From the sequence record MZ234021.1: 40,233 nucleotides of DNA, one strand, 5' to 3'. The notes beneath the pieces are model-generated. The model worked only from the letters and a program-made list of their open reading frames with translations. It made no database searches and had not been told where the DNA came from. The DNA is from Escherichia phage vB_EcoP-101118UKE1. Positions 8,967-39,215 of this stretch are shown one piece after another; the stretch's first letter is position 1, and each line of letters starts with the position of its first letter. The position numbers and the translations under genes were made by a program.

Positions 8967-8989
8967 ACTTAACTATCACTATAGGGAAG
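8967..8989 (+). promoter_or_regulatory. Phage RNAP promoter (phiOR-type, right genome end), +1 at 8984
   Basis: ACTTAACTATCACTATA/GGGAAG. Confidence 0.8.
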
Positions 8990-9169
8990 ACCCCCGGTTA
9001 CTTATAGTATTACTGTAGTGAATATACATATGCAGACTTTATGCAAGACCTTAGGAGGCAGACTCCGAGTTCTTACCTAAGGCTTGCACCGATGGAAGGA
9101 GGGTGATATTAATCATAATCCCTCCAATACAGATAGTCACCGACCATAGATACAGGAGGTATGTAGCAT

Positions 9170-9574: not shown

Positions 9575-9755
9575 TCTCACAGTTCAAGAACCTCAAGTCT
9601 CCCCCATAGGCCCTCTTTCAGTCCAGACCAAAGGCCCTACCCCAGTCTATCATAAGGTTAGACCGATGGTCAAGACTTCAGGTCAACGATAGGTTGTGGC
9701 TATGGCTTAGGGAAGGACGATAGGTTGGGACTATGGGTCTGTCTCTGAGTCTCTA
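9575..9755 (+). repeat. Probable terminal repeat (single collapsed copy) containing the physical genome ends; boundaries approximate
   Basis: Begins TCTCACAG...CCCCCATAGG like the T7 left terminus; ends near GTCTCTGAGTCTCT followed by ATCTGTA (T7 has ATCTGTT concatemer-junction pause motif). Confidence 0.4.
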
Positions 9756-10113: not shown

Positions 10114-10143
10114 TTGACAAGATGTACCGACTTAAAGTAGTAT
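10114..10143 (+). promoter_or_regulatory. Putative host sigma70 early promoter (A2/A3-like)
   Basis: TTGACA 10114-10119, 18-nt spacer, TAGTAT 10138-10143; flanking sequence resembles T7 A3 region. Confidence 0.5.
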
Positions 10144-10664: not shown

Positions 10665-11168
10665 ATGGAACGTAATGCTAACGCATACTATGAGCTGCTG
10701 GCTGCAACCGTTGAGGCATTTATCGAGCGTATTCAGTGCGACCACCTGACTAAAGATGACGACTACAGCGCTGCGCTGCATGAGGTCGTAGACGGTCAGG
10801 TTCCACACTATTACCACGAGATTTTCATGGTGATGGCTGCTGATGGTATAGACAACGAGTTCGAAGACTCTGGGATGATACCTGAAACCAAGGACGTAAC
10901 GCGTATCCTACAAGCTCGCATCTATGAGGCACTTTATAACGACGTGTCTAATAGCTTGGATGTAGTCTGGTTTGAGGATGAAGAGGCAGACGAAGAGGAT
11001 GAATATTGGGTAGTTGACGCTAAAACAGGCGCAATAATTGTGCAAGCTGTAGCTCTTGAGGTCGCTACTGCATGTGCCAAGGTTAACTATGCGGCAGGTC
11101 GCCACCTTCAGGTGGAAGACATCAATGATAACGTAGTGTTTGACCCTGCTGCTGAGGACTGCGAGTGA
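10665..11168 (+). CDS. Ocr-like anti-restriction DNA-mimic protein (gp0.3) with ~50-aa C-terminal extension
   Basis: GAGAGGA RBS; VPHYYHEIFMVMAADGIDNEFEDSGMIPETKDVTRILQARIYE closely matches T7 Ocr; acidic tract then extra 50 aa absent from 117-aa T7 Ocr. Confidence 0.85.
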   Translation: MERNANAYYELLAATVEAFIERIQCDHLTKDDDYSAALHEVVDGQVPHYYHEIFMVMAADGIDNEFEDSGMIPETKDVTRILQARIYEALYNDVSNSLDVVWFEDEEADEEDEYWVVDAKTGAIIVQAVALEVATACAKVNYAAGRHLQVEDINDNVVFDPAAEDCE

Positions 11169-11740: not shown

Positions 11741-11845
11741 ATGAGCACTGCAATCATCTGGACTATCTCAGGCTTCGTAGCGTGGGGAATGTTTACTCTA
11801 GTCTGCAAACTACCGGTCCTTACTCAACTGTTATGGGGCTTATGA
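11741..11845 (+). CDS. Small hydrophobic peptide (34 aa)
   Basis: AGGAG RBS 11730-11734, ATG 11741; MSTAIIWTISGFVAWGMFTLVC...; stop overlaps next start. Confidence 0.35.
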   Translation: MSTAIIWTISGFVAWGMFTLVCKLPVLTQLLWGL

Positions 11846-11961
11846 CTATGAGTATCGCACTATTGATAGCCATAGGCTATGGACTTATCGCCTACGTGCT
11901 GGTGAGAGACATCAACAAAGCGCGTAAAGTCTACAAATTCAAAATATGTACGTCTGGGTAG
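11842..11961 (+). CDS. Small transmembrane peptide (39 aa)
   Basis: ATGA overlap with preceding small ORF; MTMSIALLIAIGYGLIAYVLV TM helix then basic tail; is the 3' part of the 96-aa ORF in the track. Confidence 0.35.
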   Translation: MTMSIALLIAIGYGLIAYVLVRDINKARKVYKFKICTSG

Positions 11962-12045
11962 CTGGACTGTACGTCAACCTAACGGACGATTCATGCGTAA
12001 CTTAGCGAACGTCTGGGATATAGCAACACTTGGGAGCAAACTGTA

Positions 12046-12372
12046 ATGAACAAGTCATACGGGATTAATCTGGTACACTCTATGGACGCAGACATGCAAA
12101 TGTTAAGCCTACTGGCTACCGGGTATCGTCACGGAACGTCAAGTCACTCCGCACGTCAACAGCAGGAGCGGGACCGGGTACTGCAAGCAAGACTCCGGGC
12201 TGAGGGCCATAAGTCCGAACTAATGTGTCTGGCGTATGGTGGACGACCAATCACTGACGATGGTAAACTTTTAGTCTCAGGCTGGAAGGCGATAGACCAA
12301 CGGTCAACCATCAAGCACACGACTCATGGTGACTTCAGTCATCTCCACGCTAACCCGCTGATATGCAAGTAA
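12046..12372 (+). CDS. Hypothetical early protein (108 aa)
   Basis: GGGAG RBS 12032-12036; occupies the position of T7 gene 0.7 but has no kinase motifs. Confidence 0.45.
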   Translation: MNKSYGINLVHSMDADMQMLSLLATGYRHGTSSHSARQQQERDRVLQARLRAEGHKSELMCLAYGGRPITDDGKLLVSGWKAIDQRSTIKHTTHGDFSHLHANPLICK

Positions 12373-12377
12373 TTCTG

Positions 12378-12400
12378 ACTTAACTATCACTATAGGACTC
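12378..12400 (+). promoter_or_regulatory. Phage RNAP promoter immediately upstream of the RNAP gene, +1 at 12395
   Basis: ACTTAACTATCACTATA/GGACTC, 75 nt before RNAP ATG. Confidence 0.7.
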
Positions 12401-12469
12401 AAGGTCTAAGACTCCAAGTGAAAGACCAAAGAGACTTTAAGTGAAAGACTAATAACAAGGACTTTAAGT

Positions 12470-15151
12470 ATGAGCGTCATCTCTATTGACAAGCACGACT
12501 TCTCTGATGTGTCGAACGCCATTGAGCCGTTTAACCTACTGGCTGACCACTACGGGCAAGACCTTGCAGTCAAACAGCTTCAGCTTGAGCACGAGGCATA
12601 CACTGAAGGCGAGCGACGTTTCATCAAGAACCTTGAGCGCCAGACCGAGCGCGGGGAACTGGCAGACAATCAGGTAGCCAAGCCTCTTATGCAGACTCTT
12701 GTTCCTAAGATTGTGCAAGCCGTCAAGGAGTGGCACGAAGGTCCAGACGGGAAGCTGTCAACCTCTCGTCCGAGCGTAGCGTTCACCATGTTGAGCACTG
12801 AAGAGAAGGCCGTAAAGGACCGCTCTTTGCGCATCTCCTGCGAATCTGCTGCGGTTATCATACTGAAGGTCATACTCTCCAAGCTGATCAAGCCTGAAGG
12901 GATACCGATTACACCGATGGCATCCGCGATAGGGCGCACACTTGAGGACGAAATCCGCTTCGGTCGCATCCGTGACAAAGAGAAAGAGCACTTCAAGAAG
13001 GCGATAGCTGATAACCTGAATAAGCGGGCCGGGGCGTCCTACAAGAAAGCCTACATGCAAGCGGTCGAGGCATCCATGCTGGAGCAAGGCCAACTGGAAG
13101 ATGCGTGGGGGACTTGGAGTCCTACAGAGGCTGTCCACGTTGGCGTCAAGATGCTTGAGATTGTCATCCAGTCAACACAACTGGTAGAGCTTAAGCGGTA
13201 CGGTGCTGGCAATGCAGCGGCTGACGTTGAGATGGTCCACCTGTCAGACTTCTGGGTCAAGAAGATGGCACAACGAGGATTCAGCCTTGCGGGTATCGCT
13301 CCAGTCTACCAGCCTTGCGTCGTTCCACCTAAGCCGTGGACCGGTGTCGTAGGAGGTGGGTACTGGGCCAAAGGACGCAGACCACTGCCACTGATTCGCT
13401 TAGGGTCTAAGTCTGCGGTGGCACGTTACGAAGACGTGTACATGCCTGAAGTCTATGACGCTGTGAATATCATCCAGAATACACCTTGGAAAGTGAACAA
13501 GAAGGTTCTGGACGTGGTGAACATGGTCGAGAAGCTGAACAACACGCCTATTGATGACATCCCTCAGATGGAACCGCTGAAGCCTGAGGACTATGCGGGT
13601 GAGACTGAAGAAGAACTCAAGGCATGGAAGAAGGCTGCTGCTGGTATCTATCGCCGCGAGAAGGCCAGACAGTCACGAAGATTGTCACTGAGCTTTATCG
13701 TCAACCAAGCGAACAAGTTCTCTCAGTTCAAGGCCATCTGGTTCCCGTATAACATGGACTGGCGTGGGCGCGTCTACGCTGTTCCGATGTTCAACCCTCA
13801 GGGTAACGACATGCAGAAGGGTCTTCTGACTCTGGCAGTCGGTAAGCCTATTGGTGCTGATGGTTTCAAATGGCTGAAGGTCCACGGTGCAAACTGCGCG
13901 GGTGTCGATAAAGTCACCTTCGAGGAGCGTATCAAGTGGGTGGAAGATAACCACGACAACATCATGGCTGCTGCTAAGGCGCCGATGGATAGTATTAAGT
14001 GGTGGGGCAAGTTAGACTCTCCGTTCTGCTTCCTAGCGTTCTGCTTCGAGTATGCTGGCGTAATGCACCACGGCTTGTCTTACTCCTGCTCGCTGCCGAT
14101 AGCGTTCGATGGGTCCTGCTCTGGGATTCAGCACTTCAGCGCTATGCTTCGCGACCACATCGGTGGACATGCAGTAAACCTGACGCCATCCGGTAAGGTC
14201 CAAGACATCTACCGAATCGTGTCTGACCGCATTGAGGAGGAGCTTAAAGTCCTACTGGTTAACGGTACGGACAACGAGATGGTAACTCACGAGGACAAGA
14301 AAACTGGTGAGATTACCGAGCGTCTCAAGCTGGGGACACGAGAGCTTGCCAGTCAGTGGCTTACCTACGGTATGTCACGAAAGGTCACTAAGCGTTCGGT
14401 CATGACTCTGGCCTACGGGTCGAAAGAGTACGGCTTCGCAGACCAAGTTTACGAGGACATCGTGATGCCAGCGATTGACTCAGGGTCTGGCGCTATGTTC
14501 ACTGAACCAAGCCAAGCATCTCGCTTCATGGCTAAGATGATTTGGGAAGCTGTGAGTGTGACCGTAGTTGCTGCGGTTGACGCGATGAAATGGCTTCAGG
14601 GTGCTGCCAAGCTGCTTGCTGCTGAAGTGAAGGACAAGAAGACTGGAGAAATCCTGAAGCCTTGTCTTCCGGTACACTGGGTCACACCTGATGGTTTCCC
14701 TGTCTGGCAGGAATACCGCAAGAAGGACACCACTCGTCTGAACCTGATGTTCTTAGGGTCATTCAACCTTCAGCCTACCGTCAACAAAGGCACGAAGAAA
14801 GAGCTGGACAAGCACAAGCAGGAGTCAGGCATTAGCCCGAACTTCGTCCACTCACAAGATGGTAGCCACCTCCGCAAGACTGTAGTCCACACGCATCGCA
14901 AGTACGGCGTGATGTCATTCGCAGTGATTCACGATAGCTTCGGGACCATCCCGGCTGACGCTGAGTATCTGTTCCGTGGAGTCCGTGAGACGATGGTCGA
15001 GACCTACCGCGACAACGATGTGCTGCTTGACTTCTACGAGCAGTTTGAATACCAGCTTCACGAGAGCCAGAGAGACAAGTTGCCTGAGCTTCCGAAGAAA
15101 GGTAAACTGAATATCGAAGACATCTTGTCTTCAGACTTTGCATTCGCTTAA
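12470..15151 (+). CDS. Single-subunit DNA-directed RNA polymerase (gp1)
   Basis: 893 aa, colinear with T7/T3 RNAP throughout (PMFNPQGNDMQKGLLTLA, FCFLAFCFEYAGV, AFDGSCSGIQHFSAM, TLAYGSKEYGF, HDSFGT, C-terminal FAFA). Confidence 0.98.
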   Translation: MSVISIDKHDFSDVSNAIEPFNLLADHYGQDLAVKQLQLEHEAYTEGERRFIKNLERQTERGELADNQVAKPLMQTLVPKIVQAVKEWHEGPDGKLSTSRPSVAFTMLSTEEKAVKDRSLRISCESAAVIILKVILSKLIKPEGIPITPMASAIGRTLEDEIRFGRIRDKEKEHFKKAIADNLNKRAGASYKKAYMQAVEASMLEQGQLEDAWGTWSPTEAVHVGVKMLEIVIQSTQLVELKRYGAGNAAADVEMVHLSDFWVKKMAQRGFSLAGIAPVYQPCVVPPKPWTGVVGGGYWAKGRRPLPLIRLGSKSAVARYEDVYMPEVYDAVNIIQNTPWKVNKKVLDVVNMVEKLNNTPIDDIPQMEPLKPEDYAGETEEELKAWKKAAAGIYRREKARQSRRLSLSFIVNQANKFSQFKAIWFPYNMDWRGRVYAVPMFNPQGNDMQKGLLTLAVGKPIGADGFKWLKVHGANCAGVDKVTFEERIKWVEDNHDNIMAAAKAPMDSIKWWGKLDSPFCFLAFCFEYAGVMHHGLSYSCSLPIAFDGSCSGIQHFSAMLRDHIGGHAVNLTPSGKVQDIYRIVSDRIEEELKVLLVNGTDNEMVTHEDKKTGEITERLKLGTRELASQWLTYGMSRKVTKRSVMTLAYGSKEYGFADQVYEDIVMPAIDSGSGAMFTEPSQASRFMAKMIWEAVSVTVVAAVDAMKWLQGAAKLLAAEVKDKKTGEILKPCLPVHWVTPDGFPVWQEYRKKDTTRLNLMFLGSFNLQPTVNKGTKKELDKHKQESGISPNFVHSQDGSHLRKTVVHTHRKYGVMSFAVIHDSFGTIPADAEYLFRGVRETMVETYRDNDVLLDFYEQFEYQLHESQRDKLPELPKKGKLNIEDILSSDFAFA

Positions 15152-15166
15152 CAACAGGAGAAGTAT

Positions 15167-15397
15167 ATGTCAATGAAACTTGTAGCACACAACAGGGTAT
15201 TCAACGATGGGTCGGGACGTTGCCATGTAGAGCTGACTTATAAGGATTTAATCATTCTCCGAGACAGATTACAGTCGGGTGTGACTGGGTGGATTCAACC
15301 TAACGAGTACAACCTTATAGCTTCGATTGATGAAGTTCTTAACGCGTGGATGGAAGACGAGCGCATTCAGTATCCGTCATTCCCTCTAATTAGATAA
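15167..15397 (+). CDS. Hypothetical protein (76 aa)
   Basis: AGGAGA RBS; between RNAP gene and the phi1.1-type promoter. Confidence 0.55.
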   Translation: MSMKLVAHNRVFNDGSGRCHVELTYKDLIILRDRLQSGVTGWIQPNEYNLIASIDEVLNAWMEDERIQYPSFPLIR

Positions 15398-15698: not shown

Positions 15699-15721
15699 CC
15701 TAAACTATCACTATAGGCTTA
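15699..15721 (+). promoter_or_regulatory. Phage RNAP promoter (phi1.1-type), +1 at 15716
   Basis: CCTAAACTATCACTATA/GGCTTA. Confidence 0.8.
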
Positions 15722-15726
15722 GACTC

Positions 15727-15753
15727 AAGGTCATGACTCAAAGTCGTGGCCTT
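15727..15753 (+). promoter_or_regulatory. Putative RNase III processing hairpin (R1.1-like) just after phi1.1-type promoter
   Basis: AAGGTCAT 15727-15734 / GTGGCCTT 15746-15753. Confidence 0.5.
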
Positions 15754-15794
15754 CATGATTAACCCTAAATAAACACTACTGGAGATTTAACCGT

Positions 15795-17506: not shown

Positions 17507-17512
17507 CGTCAA

Positions 17513-17544
17513 CCCAGTGGTCTTATGACTGCTGGGTTTCTTTG
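17513..17544 (+). terminator. Intrinsic terminator after the ligase region (TE-like early terminator)
   Basis: 8-bp stem CCCAGUGG / CUGCUGGG (with G-U pairs) followed by TTTCTTTG. Confidence 0.6.
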
Positions 17545-19646: not shown

Positions 19647-20137
19647 TGAGCAAGAAGTTTAAACTGTTAGTAGATGCGCATGGCTGGCCTAGTGGGACTA
19701 TAGTTACCAAGTGTGAGAATGACCCCGTACCAGATTCAAGAATGACCCTAGTTGAGTGCCAGATTCCAGGCGCATACAAACATGGGTCTAACGGCTGCAA
19801 TACTCAGCCTGAGGGTATGTGGGGAGCATGGGTCCTTAATTGGAAACTTGAGGAAATCAAGCCGGAAGAGAAACTCACTGGTGTCCAAACCACTCAAGTC
19901 CTGCCAGCTTCGAGCGTACCGCCTGTGACTTTGAAGCGTGAAGTCCTGACCATCGACAAGATTGGTGTAGGCCAGACGTTCATCGTCCATGGAAAGCCTG
20001 AAGAAGTTTACGTGAAGATTAGCAACTCACACGTCTTCAACCATAAGCATCTCCAGATGCACACCACGGACGCACAACGCTTCACCCAGCACCTGAATCT
20101 GGTTGTCGTAGAATTGGTGGTGTACAATGGTAAGTAA
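19646..20137 (+). CDS. Hypothetical protein (163 aa), inserted between endonuclease I and lysozyme
   Basis: AAAGGAG RBS 19632-19638, TGATG overlap with gp3 stop; no T7 counterpart at this position. Confidence 0.65.
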   Translation: MSKKFKLLVDAHGWPSGTIVTKCENDPVPDSRMTLVECQIPGAYKHGSNGCNTQPEGMWGAWVLNWKLEEIKPEEKLTGVQTTQVLPASSVPPVTLKREVLTIDKIGVGQTFIVHGKPEEVYVKISNSHVFNHKHLQMHTTDAQRFTQHLNLVVVELVVYNGK

Positions 20138-20585
20138 GGTACAGTTCAATCCACGGTCCCGGACCGACGCTATCTTCGTACACTGTTCGGCTACCAAGCC
20201 AGAGATGGACATCGGGGTAGAGACCATCCGTATGTGGCACAAGCAGCAAGGCTGGCTGGACGTAGGCTACCACTTTATCATCAAGCGCGATGGTACTGTG
20301 GAAGAGGGACGCCCTGTCAATGTCGTAGGGTCACACGTTAAGGACTGGAACTCACGGTCTGTAGGCGTCTGCCTTGTAGGTGGAATTGACGCTAAGGGTC
20401 AGTTTGAAGCTAACTTCACTCCAGCCCAGATGAACTCCCTGCGCAACAAGCTGGCTGACCTGAAGGTCCTGTATCCTCAGGCAGAAATAAAAGCACACCA
20501 TGACGTAGCACCTAAGGCGTGTCCAAGTTTTGACTTGCAACGCTGGCTGTCTACCAATGAACTGGTAACTTCCGACCACGGTTAA
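20127..20585 (+). CDS. N-acetylmuramoyl-L-alanine amidase / T7-type lysozyme (gp3.5)
   Basis: DAIFVHCSATKP, WLDVGYHFIIKRDGTVEEGR, HDVAPKACPSFD match T7 gp3.5. Confidence 0.93.
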   Translation: MVSKVQFNPRSRTDAIFVHCSATKPEMDIGVETIRMWHKQQGWLDVGYHFIIKRDGTVEEGRPVNVVGSHVKDWNSRSVGVCLVGGIDAKGQFEANFTPAQMNSLRNKLADLKVLYPQAEIKAHHDVAPKACPSFDLQRWLSTNELVTSDHG

Positions 20586-20608: not shown

Positions 20609-20824
20609 ATGATTAAACTTATCGAATTTCTTGGTCGTCTGGTGGTGCGTGGTTATCGTCGTGCTGCGGTTATGGAACGAAAGGTAGCAGAGAAGACTGC
20701 CGATGGTGCGGCTGATGCTGCTGCTCTGGCTGACAAGCTGACCATCGCGTCACTGGAAGCTGGCATGAAGGCGCGTCAGGCTGACACCAAAGCCGACCAG
20801 TTGTCTCAGGTCTTCAAAGCCTAA
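20609..20824 (+). CDS. Hypothetical Ala-rich small protein (71 aa)
   Basis: AAAGGAGAA RBS; position of T7 gene 3.8 but not HNH-like. Confidence 0.55.
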   Translation: MIKLIEFLGRLVVRGYRRAAVMERKVAEKTADGAADAAALADKLTIASLEAGMKARQADTKADQLSQVFKA

Positions 20825-20842
20825 ACTATCACCTTAGGGATG
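20820..20842 (+). promoter_or_regulatory. Phage RNAP promoter variant upstream of gene 4, +1 at 20837
   Basis: CCTAAACTATCACCTTA/GGGATG (divergent at -4/-3). Confidence 0.55.
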
Positions 20843-36932: not shown

Positions 36933-39215
36933 ATGGCTAGTAATATTGAATCAGCTCTGGCTAATCGGACTATGGGTCGTGGCAGGGCTCCGGGTAAAAC
37001 TATCGCCGTCAACTATCAAGCAGCCAGCGTTCAGGCTCCAACTGGTGACTCAGGTCTGGCTCGGGCGCTAACCAACTTCGTTGAGTCTGGTACTGGATTA
37101 TACAAGCAGTTCAAAGACGAGGAGAAGACACGGGCCGACGAGCGGTCTAACGAGATTATCCGTAAGCTTACACCTCAGCAAAGACGTGAGGCTATCCAGA
37201 ACGGTACATTGCTGTATCAGGATGACCCTTACGCTATGGAAGCACTTCGAGTCAAGACGGGCCGTAACGCTGCCTTTGCGGTTGATGACGAGATTAACGT
37301 TAAGATTCAGAACGGTGAGTTCCGTACACGTCAGGACATGGAAGAGTATCGCCACCAGAGACTTCAGGACGCCGCTAAGTCCTATGCTGAAGAGGCGGGT
37401 ATTAACCCTACCGACGAGTTCTTCCAGCGCGGGTTCAACGATAACATCACAGACCGAAACATCGCTATCTATGGGTCTTTCAATAAGTATTTCAGCAAGC
37501 AGTCTGAAGAGACAGCAATGTTGAACACTCGTATTGAGATGAACTCGTTCCTTAACGATGGGGACCTGATGCGTTCGCCTGATTCTGGAAAGACCTTCAT
37601 GGCCTACCTTCGGGATGGACTGACGACTGCTGCTATCCCTTCGGACCAGCGAGCACGAGAGGTAATCACCCAGACGGTCCGTGACGCAATCCAGAAGTCA
37701 GGAGGCTCAAACTTCCTACAGCAAGTCCGTGGTGAGCGTATCAACCTTAACGGTGTGGATGCTACAGTCGAAGAGATTGTAGGACCAGATGTCTTCAACG
37801 CTGCTATTGTAGAGGCCCAAGGTACTGAGTACAAGCTGGTGGCTAAGTATCAGGAAGACTTGTCGTTAGGCGTTCAGTCTGCGATTCTTCAGGATGACCC
37901 AACCATCGGTCTGGCCCAGATTCAGAAACTCAAGGAGCAGAACAACCTGCTTCAACCGGGTGAAGAACTCACGCCTCAGCGTCAGATGCTTATTAATGCC
38001 GAAGCCAGCTTACTGGAAGCGGTCAAGCGTAAGTCTGCTGAACAAGCGAAGGAGAACACTAAGTTAATCCAGACCCAGAACAAGCAACTGGTCATCGACC
38101 AAGTGTATCAGCGACGTCTGGCTGGTGACAACGTATCCACCAACTATGAGGACCTTCCGGTCTCTGACGCTACAGGGGAGTTCAAGCGTTCAGACATGAA
38201 CAACTATGCGTCTTCCAAGCTACAGCAGATTGACCAGATGGACATCCCTGAGGCTGCTAAGGACGCTCAGAAGGTGGCATTGTTAAGAGCTGACACTAAT
38301 AACGGTCCGTTCCGTAATGCCTTCCAGACGCTGACTCAGGACGCTGCTGGTGAGTGGCAAGCTGCGGTCATCCGTGGACAGTACGACCCAGATAAGATGC
38401 AACGCTTCGAGTCTCTTCGTCGTGCCTACACTCAGGACCCTTCAAGTTTCGCTGCTCTGTATCCTGACCAAGCTCAGTTGTTCTCTACATTCGACCAGAT
38501 GGACAAAATGGGTCTAGACCCTCAGACGATGATTGAAGCTGATAAGCAAGCTGCAAGTCAAAGCCGTGAGATGCGCATGGAGTCAGACAAGGCGTGGCAG
38601 GAGTTGAAGAACGACTCCAAGAACACCCAGTTGTCTCGCCTCCCAACGTCTCTGGACTCAAGTGCTCGTAAGGTCTGGGACTCATGGTACTATCGTACAG
38701 GTAACGCTGACGCTGCAACGCAGCAGACTCAACGCTGGCTGAATGAGAACACCGTAACGTTCCAGTCTGAAGGTTCTGACGGTAAGTCCATCGGCATGGT
38801 GTCCAAACACCAGCTTATGGTCGGGGATAACCCAGAGTCGTGGCAGGTGGGTCGAGACATTATAGACACCGCTCGTCAGCAGCTCATTAAGGCCAACCCT
38901 TGGGTAGTGAACTCTCAGTTGTCCGTTGTTGAACAGAACGGCTCTATCTTCCTCCAAGACGCTACGGGGACTATTCGTATTCGATACGATAAAGAACTTG
39001 TAGGTAAACTCTACCGCGAACAACAGCAGAAGGTACAAGATGCCGCATATGCTCAGGCAGAACGTGACGCTAACAAGCGAGCGCGTATCGTCGGGACTAA
39101 AGCTGCTGGTGACAAACGTCGAGCTGACCGAGAGGCCAACATCGAGAAGCGCGGTGGGATGTACAATGACGTCTCACTGGAGGGTATCGCAAACGCACTA
39201 ATCGGTAAGGAGTAA
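36933..39215 (+). CDS. Internal virion protein C (gp15)
   Basis: 760 aa, AGAGGAGG RBS; size and position as T7 gp15. Confidence 0.9.
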   Translation: MASNIESALANRTMGRGRAPGKTIAVNYQAASVQAPTGDSGLARALTNFVESGTGLYKQFKDEEKTRADERSNEIIRKLTPQQRREAIQNGTLLYQDDPYAMEALRVKTGRNAAFAVDDEINVKIQNGEFRTRQDMEEYRHQRLQDAAKSYAEEAGINPTDEFFQRGFNDNITDRNIAIYGSFNKYFSKQSEETAMLNTRIEMNSFLNDGDLMRSPDSGKTFMAYLRDGLTTAAIPSDQRAREVITQTVRDAIQKSGGSNFLQQVRGERINLNGVDATVEEIVGPDVFNAAIVEAQGTEYKLVAKYQEDLSLGVQSAILQDDPTIGLAQIQKLKEQNNLLQPGEELTPQRQMLINAEASLLEAVKRKSAEQAKENTKLIQTQNKQLVIDQVYQRRLAGDNVSTNYEDLPVSDATGEFKRSDMNNYASSKLQQIDQMDIPEAAKDAQKVALLRADTNNGPFRNAFQTLTQDAAGEWQAAVIRGQYDPDKMQRFESLRRAYTQDPSSFAALYPDQAQLFSTFDQMDKMGLDPQTMIEADKQAASQSREMRMESDKAWQELKNDSKNTQLSRLPTSLDSSARKVWDSWYYRTGNADAATQQTQRWLNENTVTFQSEGSDGKSIGMVSKHQLMVGDNPESWQVGRDIIDTARQQLIKANPWVVNSQLSVVEQNGSIFLQDATGTIRIRYDKELVGKLYREQQQKVQDAAYAQAERDANKRARIVGTKAAGDKRRADREANIEKRGGMYNDVSLEGIANALIGKE

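Follow-up and report, generated by a model that had tools for sequence, protein, structure and literature searches.

The window, a stretch of 40,233 nt from Escherichia phage vB_EcoP-101118UKE1 (MZ234021.1), is a circularly permuted Kayfunavirus (K1F-like) genome, whose left end is marked by a terminal repeat present in single copy (9575..9753). The features that follow are on the plus strand. A sigma-70-type early host promoter (TTGACA-18-TAGTAT, 10114..10143), the counterpart of an annotated host promoter in EcoDS1, would be able to prime the first polymerase synthesis by supplying the first gene 1 mRNA. The stop codon of the last early gene, a gp0.38 homologue (12046..12372), lies 5 nt upstream of a phage-polymerase promoter (12378..12400, -17 to +6), and this is followed by gene 1 (12470..15151), which encodes a single-subunit RNA polymerase of 893 aa (Pfam RNA_pol and RPOL_N) that is 99% identical to K1F gp1. 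No terminator was found between the gp0.38 homologue and the promoter, nor any terminator-like site between the promoter and gene 1, and from the early genes to gene 1 the plus strand likewise holds no terminator-like or sigma-70-like site. Beyond gene 1 come the next promoter, equivalent to phi1.1, with a canonical T7-group RNase III-type hairpin behind it (15699..15765); a TE-like intrinsic terminator for the host polymerase after the ligase region (17511..17544), which matches the annotated EcoDS1 TE and, by its sequence, appears to mark the end of the early unit that holds gene 1; and a homologue of the gp3.5 lysozyme/amidase (20127..20585, Pfam Amidase_2).

The original prediction placed a cognate phage promoter, ACTTAACTATCACTATAGG, directly before the polymerase gene, and its location is exact: the sequence occupies 12378-12396, the predicted +1 is G12395, the first G past the TATA, and 75 nt separate it from the ATG at 12470. 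The site belongs to a K1F-class motif of ~23 bp (-17 to +6) with the core CACTATAGG, present in multiple copies that are all oriented the way the genes are transcribed. In the window there are 10 copies of the core CTATCACTRTAGG, on the plus strand only, where shuffled sequences lead one to expect 0.10. Scored with a position weight matrix, the ten promoter sites reach 33-37 bits and everything else in the window stays at or below 25 bits; the gene 1 promoter, at 34.1 bits, ranks seventh of the ten. Its description as full-consensus holds for -13 to +2 but not beyond, as -14 is T (so in 3 of the 10 sites) and the initially transcribed sequence is GGACTC. Unlike it, the promoters before gene 10 and before two other structural-gene clusters start with GGGAGA or GGGACT. 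By its sequence, the gene 1 promoter would be classed as class II-like.

Comparison with relatives argues strongly that this promoter functions. The region 12330-12520 is covered to at least 80% in 218 phage records, and a promoter-like site lies 75-82 nt 5' of the gene 1 ATG in all 31 related sequences that had been picked by the ribosome-binding-site/ATG pattern only. Where the promoter class changes, the gene 1 site changes with it. Kc166A carries its own variant, CACTGTAGG, at this position, and in three IMG/VR contigs ACCCTCACTRTAGG stands before gene 1 as well as at other places in the genome, while the DNA fetched holds no site of K1F type. The polymerase specificity loop, which was compared with promoter positions -12 to -8, follows the same division: the ACTAT promoter type is paired with the loop RLNLMFLGSFNLQPT of K1F, and the ACCCT-type IMG/VR relatives combine the loop RLDLMFLGTFRLQPT with a switched gene 1 site. 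A polymerase with the K1F loop is known to drive a promoter with the K1F -12 to -7 consensus (PMC3458549). Because the site is kept in relatives and co-varies with polymerase specificity, the phage's own polymerase almost certainly uses it as a promoter, and transcription of the polymerase gene by its own product is the natural reading of the arrangement. No transcript mapping or transcriptome data for Kayfunavirus or K1F-like phages were found in the literature.

The same comparisons bear on the view that the site is a promoter-like relic or a host (sigma-70) promoter. The GenBank record of PE3-1 does label it 'host RNAP promoter', and a minor host promoter, the E. coli C promoter, stands at the equivalent place in T7 and T3. 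Yet the 23-mer is of full phage type, with -17 to +2 identical to the phiOR equivalent, and it is conserved and co-varies with the polymerase; moreover, a search of the plus strand near 12300-12470 for sigma-70 -35 and -10 hexamers spaced by 16-18 nt gave no match. The PE3-1 label, as an analogue of the E. coli C promoter, was accordingly rejected, and a relic or host promoter is scarcely credible here. In the LET1/IMM-002 clade, the gene 1 site carries a T to A change at -2 (CACTAAAGG) that is absent from the other promoters of the clade examined; judged by its sequence, this site may be weakened, or may be retained for another role such as hairpin pairing.

The leader of a phage-initiated gene 1 mRNA would comprise 75 nt (12395..12469) that are A-rich (A at 32 of 75 positions) and weakly structured. 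Folded from +1, it does no better than its shuffles (z = 0.29), and it matches no Rfam family; on these two counts a structured element or known RNA family was discarded. Its putative Shine-Dalgarno sequence, AAGGA (12457..12461), 8 nt 5' of the ATG, is unchanged across all relatives compared. Short direct repeats had also been pointed out in the leader, and both copies of GACTTTAAGT are where they were said to be, at 12433-12442 and 12460-12469; the units are degenerate, however, and form part of a set of four of ~14 nt each (12396..12474, with starts at 12396, 12410, 12433 and 12460) that share 71-86% identity. Tandem Repeats Finder reported nothing for them, and the tandem-repeat reading was dropped in favour of degenerate 14-nt units only. 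A further idea, that in phage-initiated RNA the first repeat becomes available to mask the ribosome-binding site by alternative pairing and so damp the feedback, was rejected because the predicted accessibility of that site shows no consistent difference between phage-initiated and read-through RNA in 8 lineages.

RNA that reads through from upstream differs from phage-initiated RNA in one further respect. Only in read-through transcripts would a candidate imperfect hairpin of the R1-like, RNase III type (12384..12447) be complete, the promoter bases UCACU..AGG pairing with CUU..AGUGA of the first repeat, which forms the 3' arm. The read-through RNA 12378-12450 folds at -17.4 kcal/mol (z = -2.34; equalled by 3 of 200 shuffles), a value similar to that of the T7 R1 region (z = -2.32); the hairpin at the phi1.1 equivalent, which was included in the motif comparison as well, gives -17.7 kcal/mol and z = -2.2. 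Comparable pairing is found in the K1F, LET1, IMM-002, Kc166A and L015 lineages; in LET1, whose promoter has -2A, it includes 9 contiguous base pairs. The 5' motif of the hairpin, ACUCAAGGUC, is common to annotated T3 RNase III sites, and its position, after the last early gene and before gene 1, matches that of the annotated T3 R1. Together these features lend moderate support, at the level of predicted RNA structure, to a candidate hairpin that overlaps the gene 1 promoter. They would also suit a view in which the conserved element is mainly the 5' arm of an R1-type hairpin that frees gene 1 mRNA from the early polycistron, its promoter activity being secondary or weak. That view is very improbable. 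The ACCCT-type switch, which tracks the polymerase loop, alters -10 and -9, outside the main pairing, as expected of a promoter and not of a hairpin arm; the L027 lineage lacks the AGUGA arm but retains the promoter; and the outer helix shows no compensatory changes. In addition, the core at other promoters of the window also pairs partly with downstream sequence, which undercuts the hairpin as something special to gene 1. A combined arrangement, in which the 5' arm of the R1-like hairpin contains the gene 1 promoter, so that host-initiated RNAs are processed and phage-initiated RNAs, starting inside the hairpin, escape, is put forward tentatively and is doubtful. If it were true, there would be two classes of polymerase mRNA differing in their 5' ends, stability or translation, and the GACTTTAAGT repeats would derive from the duplication of a single unit, one copy serving as the 3' arm and the other lying at the ribosome-binding site.

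From the terminal repeat to 12378 there is no phage promoter; that is, phiOL is absent. The copy at 8967..8989, which matches the gene 1 promoter at every position between -17 and +2, was considered as a phiOL and discarded, as it maps to K1F 38853, after gene 19, and is the phiOR equivalent. Nor is the gene 1 promoter placed like a phiOL, which would be no more than a few hundred bp away from the left terminal repeat and 5' of the host early promoters: 2.8 kb separate it from the left end (9575), and the host promoters and every early gene lie 5' of it. It may nevertheless be asked whether this promoter mainly replaces the missing phiOL as a left-end entry, serving either to prime replication (a secondary origin) or to drive the downstream middle genes, self-transcription of gene 1 being incidental. 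The distribution of the two promoters fits such a replacement: K1F-like genomes have no phage promoter from the left end to the gene 1 site, with none annotated in EcoDS1, and T7, T3, K11 and BA14 all have phiOL but no promoter directly before gene 1. For T7, furthermore, phiOL is described as weak and as lying close to a replication origin (PMC6938266). The gene 1 promoter, however, does not stand beside the terminal repeat, and it is closely tied to the gene 1 start, at 75-82 nt in every lineage measured; neither a primase site nor an AT-rich stretch resembling an origin was identified at it. A main role as a stand-in for phiOL is on these grounds unlikely. It is quite probable that, of all the promoters read by the phage polymerase in this K1F-like genome, the one at gene 1 stands furthest to the left, and that the polymerase transcribes its own gene from it.

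Self-transcription from the gene 1 promoter suggests the following course of infection. From the sigma-70 promoters close to the left end, host polymerase would read the early genes and gene 1 through to TE, yielding the first polymerase mRNA. Newly made phage polymerase would then initiate at G12395 and transcribe its own gene along with the genes downstream. We infer both the initiation at this position and the size of the positive feedback that would result, through which the supply of gene 1 mRNA could continue after gp2 inhibits the host polymerase. With its non-optimal start, GGACTC, the promoter would behave as a class II type and would be expected to fade as gp3.5 lysozyme builds up, so that runaway expression is limited. 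Such damping, itself inferred, draws on T7, by analogy with which the gp3.5 homologue is likely to act as a brake on the phage polymerase at weaker promoters; the K1F record labels its gp3.5 lysozyme/RNA polymerase inhibitor. Selection on the promoter may have had a target other than gene 1, because the transcripts also feed all the downstream class II genes.

The arrangement had been presented as if it were new, and this did not survive comparison with known phages. In a close relative, the Kayfunavirus EcoDS1 (NC_011042), the RefSeq record annotates a 'promoter phi' at 2244-2266 before gene 1 with the identical 23-mer, ACTTAACTATCACTATAGGACTC; the site lies between gp0.38 and gene 1, phiOL is absent, and nothing material differs from the window. 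K1F has the same gene 1 promoter at 2474-2496, present though unannotated. The promoter before gene 1 is genus-wide and already annotated, not peculiar to vB_EcoP-101118UKE1. Outside the genus, gh-1 (Ghunavirus) has an annotated phi1, a full-consensus cognate promoter that lies ~100 nt 5' of the polymerase gene, with no phage promoter further left in the genome. It differs in having no early genes ahead of the polymerase and in the sequence class of its promoter, and an overlapping minor terminator and host promoter are annotated at phi1. Two distant relatives share a phage-specific promoter directly 5' of the polymerase gene, with host read-through priming and subsequent self-activation: in the Pseudomonas T7-like phage LUZ100 a start site has been mapped at phi1 before the polymerase gene and feedback proposed (PMC10134795), and in the vibriophage phiA318 autoregulation has been proposed for a phage promoter before the kinase and polymerase genes (PMC4099482). 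LUZ100 differs in its mapped start site and its lysogeny/MarR context, and phiA318 in that the promoter precedes the kinase gene too. As in the natural autogene layout of EcoDS1, gh-1, LUZ100 and phiA318, the promoter in the window is on the same strand as the polymerase gene, within ~100 nt of it and with no terminator between them.

In T7 and T3 the interval that separates gene 1 from the last early gene corresponds in map position to that of the window and shares a ACUCAAGGUC-like hairpin motif with it, but it contains no phage promoter; phiOL is found 2.6-2.8 kb further upstream in these phages, ahead of the host promoters. Immediately upstream of gene 1, T7 has the E. coli C promoter only (3113), and T3 has an E. 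coli C promoter and the annotated RNase III site R1. The contrast that the original prediction drew with T7, namely that gene 1 is there expressed only from early host promoters, is right in that no T7 promoter directly precedes gene 1, but it leaves out phiOL at 405, which stands ahead of the whole early region and lets the phage polymerase read into gene 1. An engineered construct has a comparable layout: Dubendorff and Studier reportedly constructed, in 1991, a T7 autogene with T7 gene 1 under a T7 promoter. Both have the polymerase gene under its own promoter, with positive feedback; the engineered autogene is artificial and requires tight plasmid control, whereas the one in the window is natural, operates in a short lytic cycle only and probably has a weaker, class II-type promoter. 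The autogene concept has since been put to use (PMC6395690).

No new principle is added by these findings, because the promoter is annotated in the genus and feedback has been published for other polymerase-encoding phages. They bear on models of the timing of T7-type infection, on the engineering of K1F-type phages and on the use of K1F-type polymerase/promoter pairs; gene 1 cloned together with its promoter fragment would make a natural autogene. For the biology of the group, they indicate that K1F-like coliphages, unlike T7, would have the polymerase gene wired for self-transcription and lack phiOL.

The 893-aa ORF at 12470-15151 (+) encodes a single-subunit RNA polymerase (Pfam RNA_pol and RPOL_N), and the phage promoter that the original prediction placed before this gene 1 is present: ACTTAACTATCACTATAGG lies at 12378-12396, with +1 at 12395, the first G past TATA, and the ORF begins, as claimed, 75 nt 3' of that position. 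The core, CTATCACTRTAGG, occurs in 10 copies, on the + strand every time, versus 0.1 expected, and K1F has the same ten promoter sites at matching map positions. With a position weight matrix the ten sites score 33-37 bits, the gene 1 promoter (12378-12400) ranking seventh of the ten at 34.1 bits; from -17 to +2 it shows no differences from the copy at 8967. The next best score, 25 bits, belongs to a degenerate eleventh promoter-like site, CCTAAACTATCACCTTAGGGATG (20820-20842), before gene 4 and ~50 nt 5' of the primase/helicase gene; beyond it and the ten promoters, the scan returned no score above ~15 bits. The initially transcribed sequence at the gene 1 promoter is GGACTC; GGGAGA is confined to the promoter of gene 10, and two further structural-gene promoters have GGGACT.

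Over 11800-15200 the window shares 99.8% identity with Escherichia phage vB_EcoP-22664BS1, and 95-98% with many Kayfunavirus (K1F-like) phages. The left and right ends of the 178-bp K1F terminal repeat map to 9575 and 9753, which indicates that the window is a circularly permuted form of a linear ~40-kb genome and contains the repeat (~178 bp, 9575-9753) once; at 9753 it has CTATCTGT, which EcoDS1 annotates as the concatemer-junction motif. The K1F counterpart of the promoter copy at 8967 lies at 38853, past gene 19, which makes this copy the equivalent of phiOR, the right-end promoter of T7-type genomes, so that an assignment as the left-end promoter, phiOL, was ruled out. At 8984-9045 the phiOR equivalent is followed by stretches complementary to its own core (CACTATAGG...ACTTATAGTA...ACTGTAGTG), which form hairpins immediately 5' of the genome end.

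Since the weight-matrix scan found no phage promoter between the left end at 9575 and 12378, the gene 1 promoter is the left-most. The early region holds a sigma-70-type promoter (10114-10143) matching an annotated EcoDS1 host promoter and an ocr homologue identified by Pfam (10665-11168), and the last early gene stops 5 nt 5' of the gene 1 promoter. Because there is no terminator-like site between the early genes and gene 1, and a terminator resembling TE, the early-region host terminator, lies at 17511-17544, past the ligase region, host polymerase can make the first gene 1 mRNA here, as happens in T7.

Relatives were gathered by a ribosome-binding-site/ATG pattern alone, GGACTTWAAGTATGAGCGT, which presupposes no promoter, and all 31 sequences so selected (27 distinct) carry a promoter-like site at the gene 1 position; where leader length was measured, in eight lineages, it is 75-82 nt. 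The site matches each phage's own promoter type. Thus, Kc166A, at 73% identity in the gene 1 promoter region, has ATTAAACTATCACTGTAGG before gene 1, like its other early/middle promoters, and three IMG/VR contigs have GATTAAACCCTCACTRTAGG there and use the ACCCT type elsewhere in their genomes (at least 10 sites in one of them), with no K1F-type site within the DNA fetched. The polymerase specificity loop reads RLDLMFLGTFRLQPT in these contigs versus RLNLMFLGSFNLQPT in K1F; at T7-aligned residues 748 and 756 the contigs have D, which T3 shares, and R, which T7 and T3 share, whereas K1F has N at both. Genome-wide AAACCCTCACTRTAGG promoters were seen in the K1F-like related DNAs L015, L026, L027, L037 and L040-L043 (IMG/VR 2974571109, 3300045988_000030, 2974585782). 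Judged by sequence, the ACCCT-type relatives represent a natural promoter-specificity switch inside the K1F-like clade. Because the gene 1 site follows both promoter type and polymerase loop, site and polymerase have changed together, as would be expected of a selected cognate promoter. Independently of these comparisons, a T7 polymerase with the K1F loop activates a promoter carrying the K1F -12 to -7 sequence (PMC3458549).

The LET1/IMM-002 clade has CACTAAAGG before gene 1, with T>A at -2, versus CACTRTAGG at its other examined promoters. Since the T3 promoter consensus has A at -2, this variant can probably still be used, though perhaps less strongly. A gp0.7-type kinase is encoded by LET1 and IMM-002, but not by K1F.

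The leader that starts at +1 is rich in A, gives a predicted fold no stronger than those of shuffled sequences (z = 0.29) and matches no Rfam family. The direct repeats pointed out earlier, GACTTTAAGT, do occur at 12433-12442 and 12460-12469, as members of four degenerate 14-nt units, and the second copy is mere spacer from the Shine-Dalgarno AAGGA (12457-12461) to the ATG. The idea that the repeats pair in phage-initiated RNA to mask the ribosome-binding site was rejected, as predicted accessibility showed no consistent difference between the two transcript classes.

In read-through RNA (12378-12450), promoter UCACU..AGG is predicted to pair with CUU..AGUGA of the first GACTTTAAGTG repeat, surrounding helices CUC/GAG and GGUCU/AGACC (-17.4 kcal/mol, z = -2.34; 3/200 shuffles as good). 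By the same test the region of T7 R1, the RNase III processing site before gene 1, is comparable (z = -2.32), whereas T3 R1, at the same map position as the candidate hairpin, folds more strongly (z = -4.24). Pairing of this kind is predicted for the K1F, LET1, IMM-002, Kc166A and L015 lineages and is absent from L027; in LET1 (L006 1850-1940) and IMM-002 (L007 3400-3497) a 1-nt deletion in the downstream arm yields nine contiguous base pairs (UCACUAAAG/CUUUAGUGA). Immediately past +1, ACUCAAGGUC represents the 5' half conserved among the RNase III sites annotated in T3, and the next promoter (15699) is followed by a canonical RNase III-type hairpin resembling R1.1 (15716-15765). This 5' half, ACTYAAGGTC, has 36 genome-wide matches at <=1 mismatch versus 6.2 expected, an excess to which codon bias may contribute, since many matches are intragenic. 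Partial pairing with downstream sequence is also seen at other promoters in the window, and the outer helix has no compensatory changes; an R1-like processing site that overlaps the gene 1 promoter is plausible but unproven.

Known systems bear on the novelty implied by the original prediction. In the RefSeq record of EcoDS1 (NC_011042; same genus), 'promoter phi' is placed immediately 5' of gene 1, at 2244-2266, and this 23-mer is identical to 12378-12400; the record also has three host promoters and no phiOL. The same site is annotated in PE3-1 (L001, KJ748011; 2874-2896) as 'host RNAP promoter', a label that looks like an annotation error, as the site is phage-type and no sigma-70 match lies behind it. 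A 2026 Kayfunavirus paper gives the gene 1 site among promoter repeats, without comment (PMC13298934). Beyond these phages, gh-1 has an annotated full-consensus phi1 ~100 nt 5' of its polymerase gene; in LUZ100 a start site was mapped at a phage-specific promoter directly 5' of the polymerase gene, and self-activation following host read-through was proposed (PMC10134795); and autoregulation was proposed for phiA318, with a promoter before the kinase and polymerase genes (PMC4099482). The SP6 record (L044) contains an unannotated near-consensus SP6 promoter-like site, ATGTGACACTATAAG (2102-2127), ~1.3 kb 5' of the polymerase gene and before genes 6 and 7.

In T7, T3, K11 and BA14, by contrast, phiOL is located close to the left end; directly before gene 1, T7 and T3 have the E. 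coli C promoter, and T3 also an annotated R1. The proposed contrast, that T7 has no T7 promoter before gene 1, therefore holds only in the immediate vicinity, because phiOL, regarded as a weak promoter close to a replication origin (PMC6938266), precedes the whole early region. With relatives already carrying an equivalent and parallels published elsewhere, the novelty does not stand: K1F-like phages have the gene 1 promoter as a standard feature, and it has been annotated before. Very probably it works as a cognate promoter and would allow the polymerase to transcribe its own gene.
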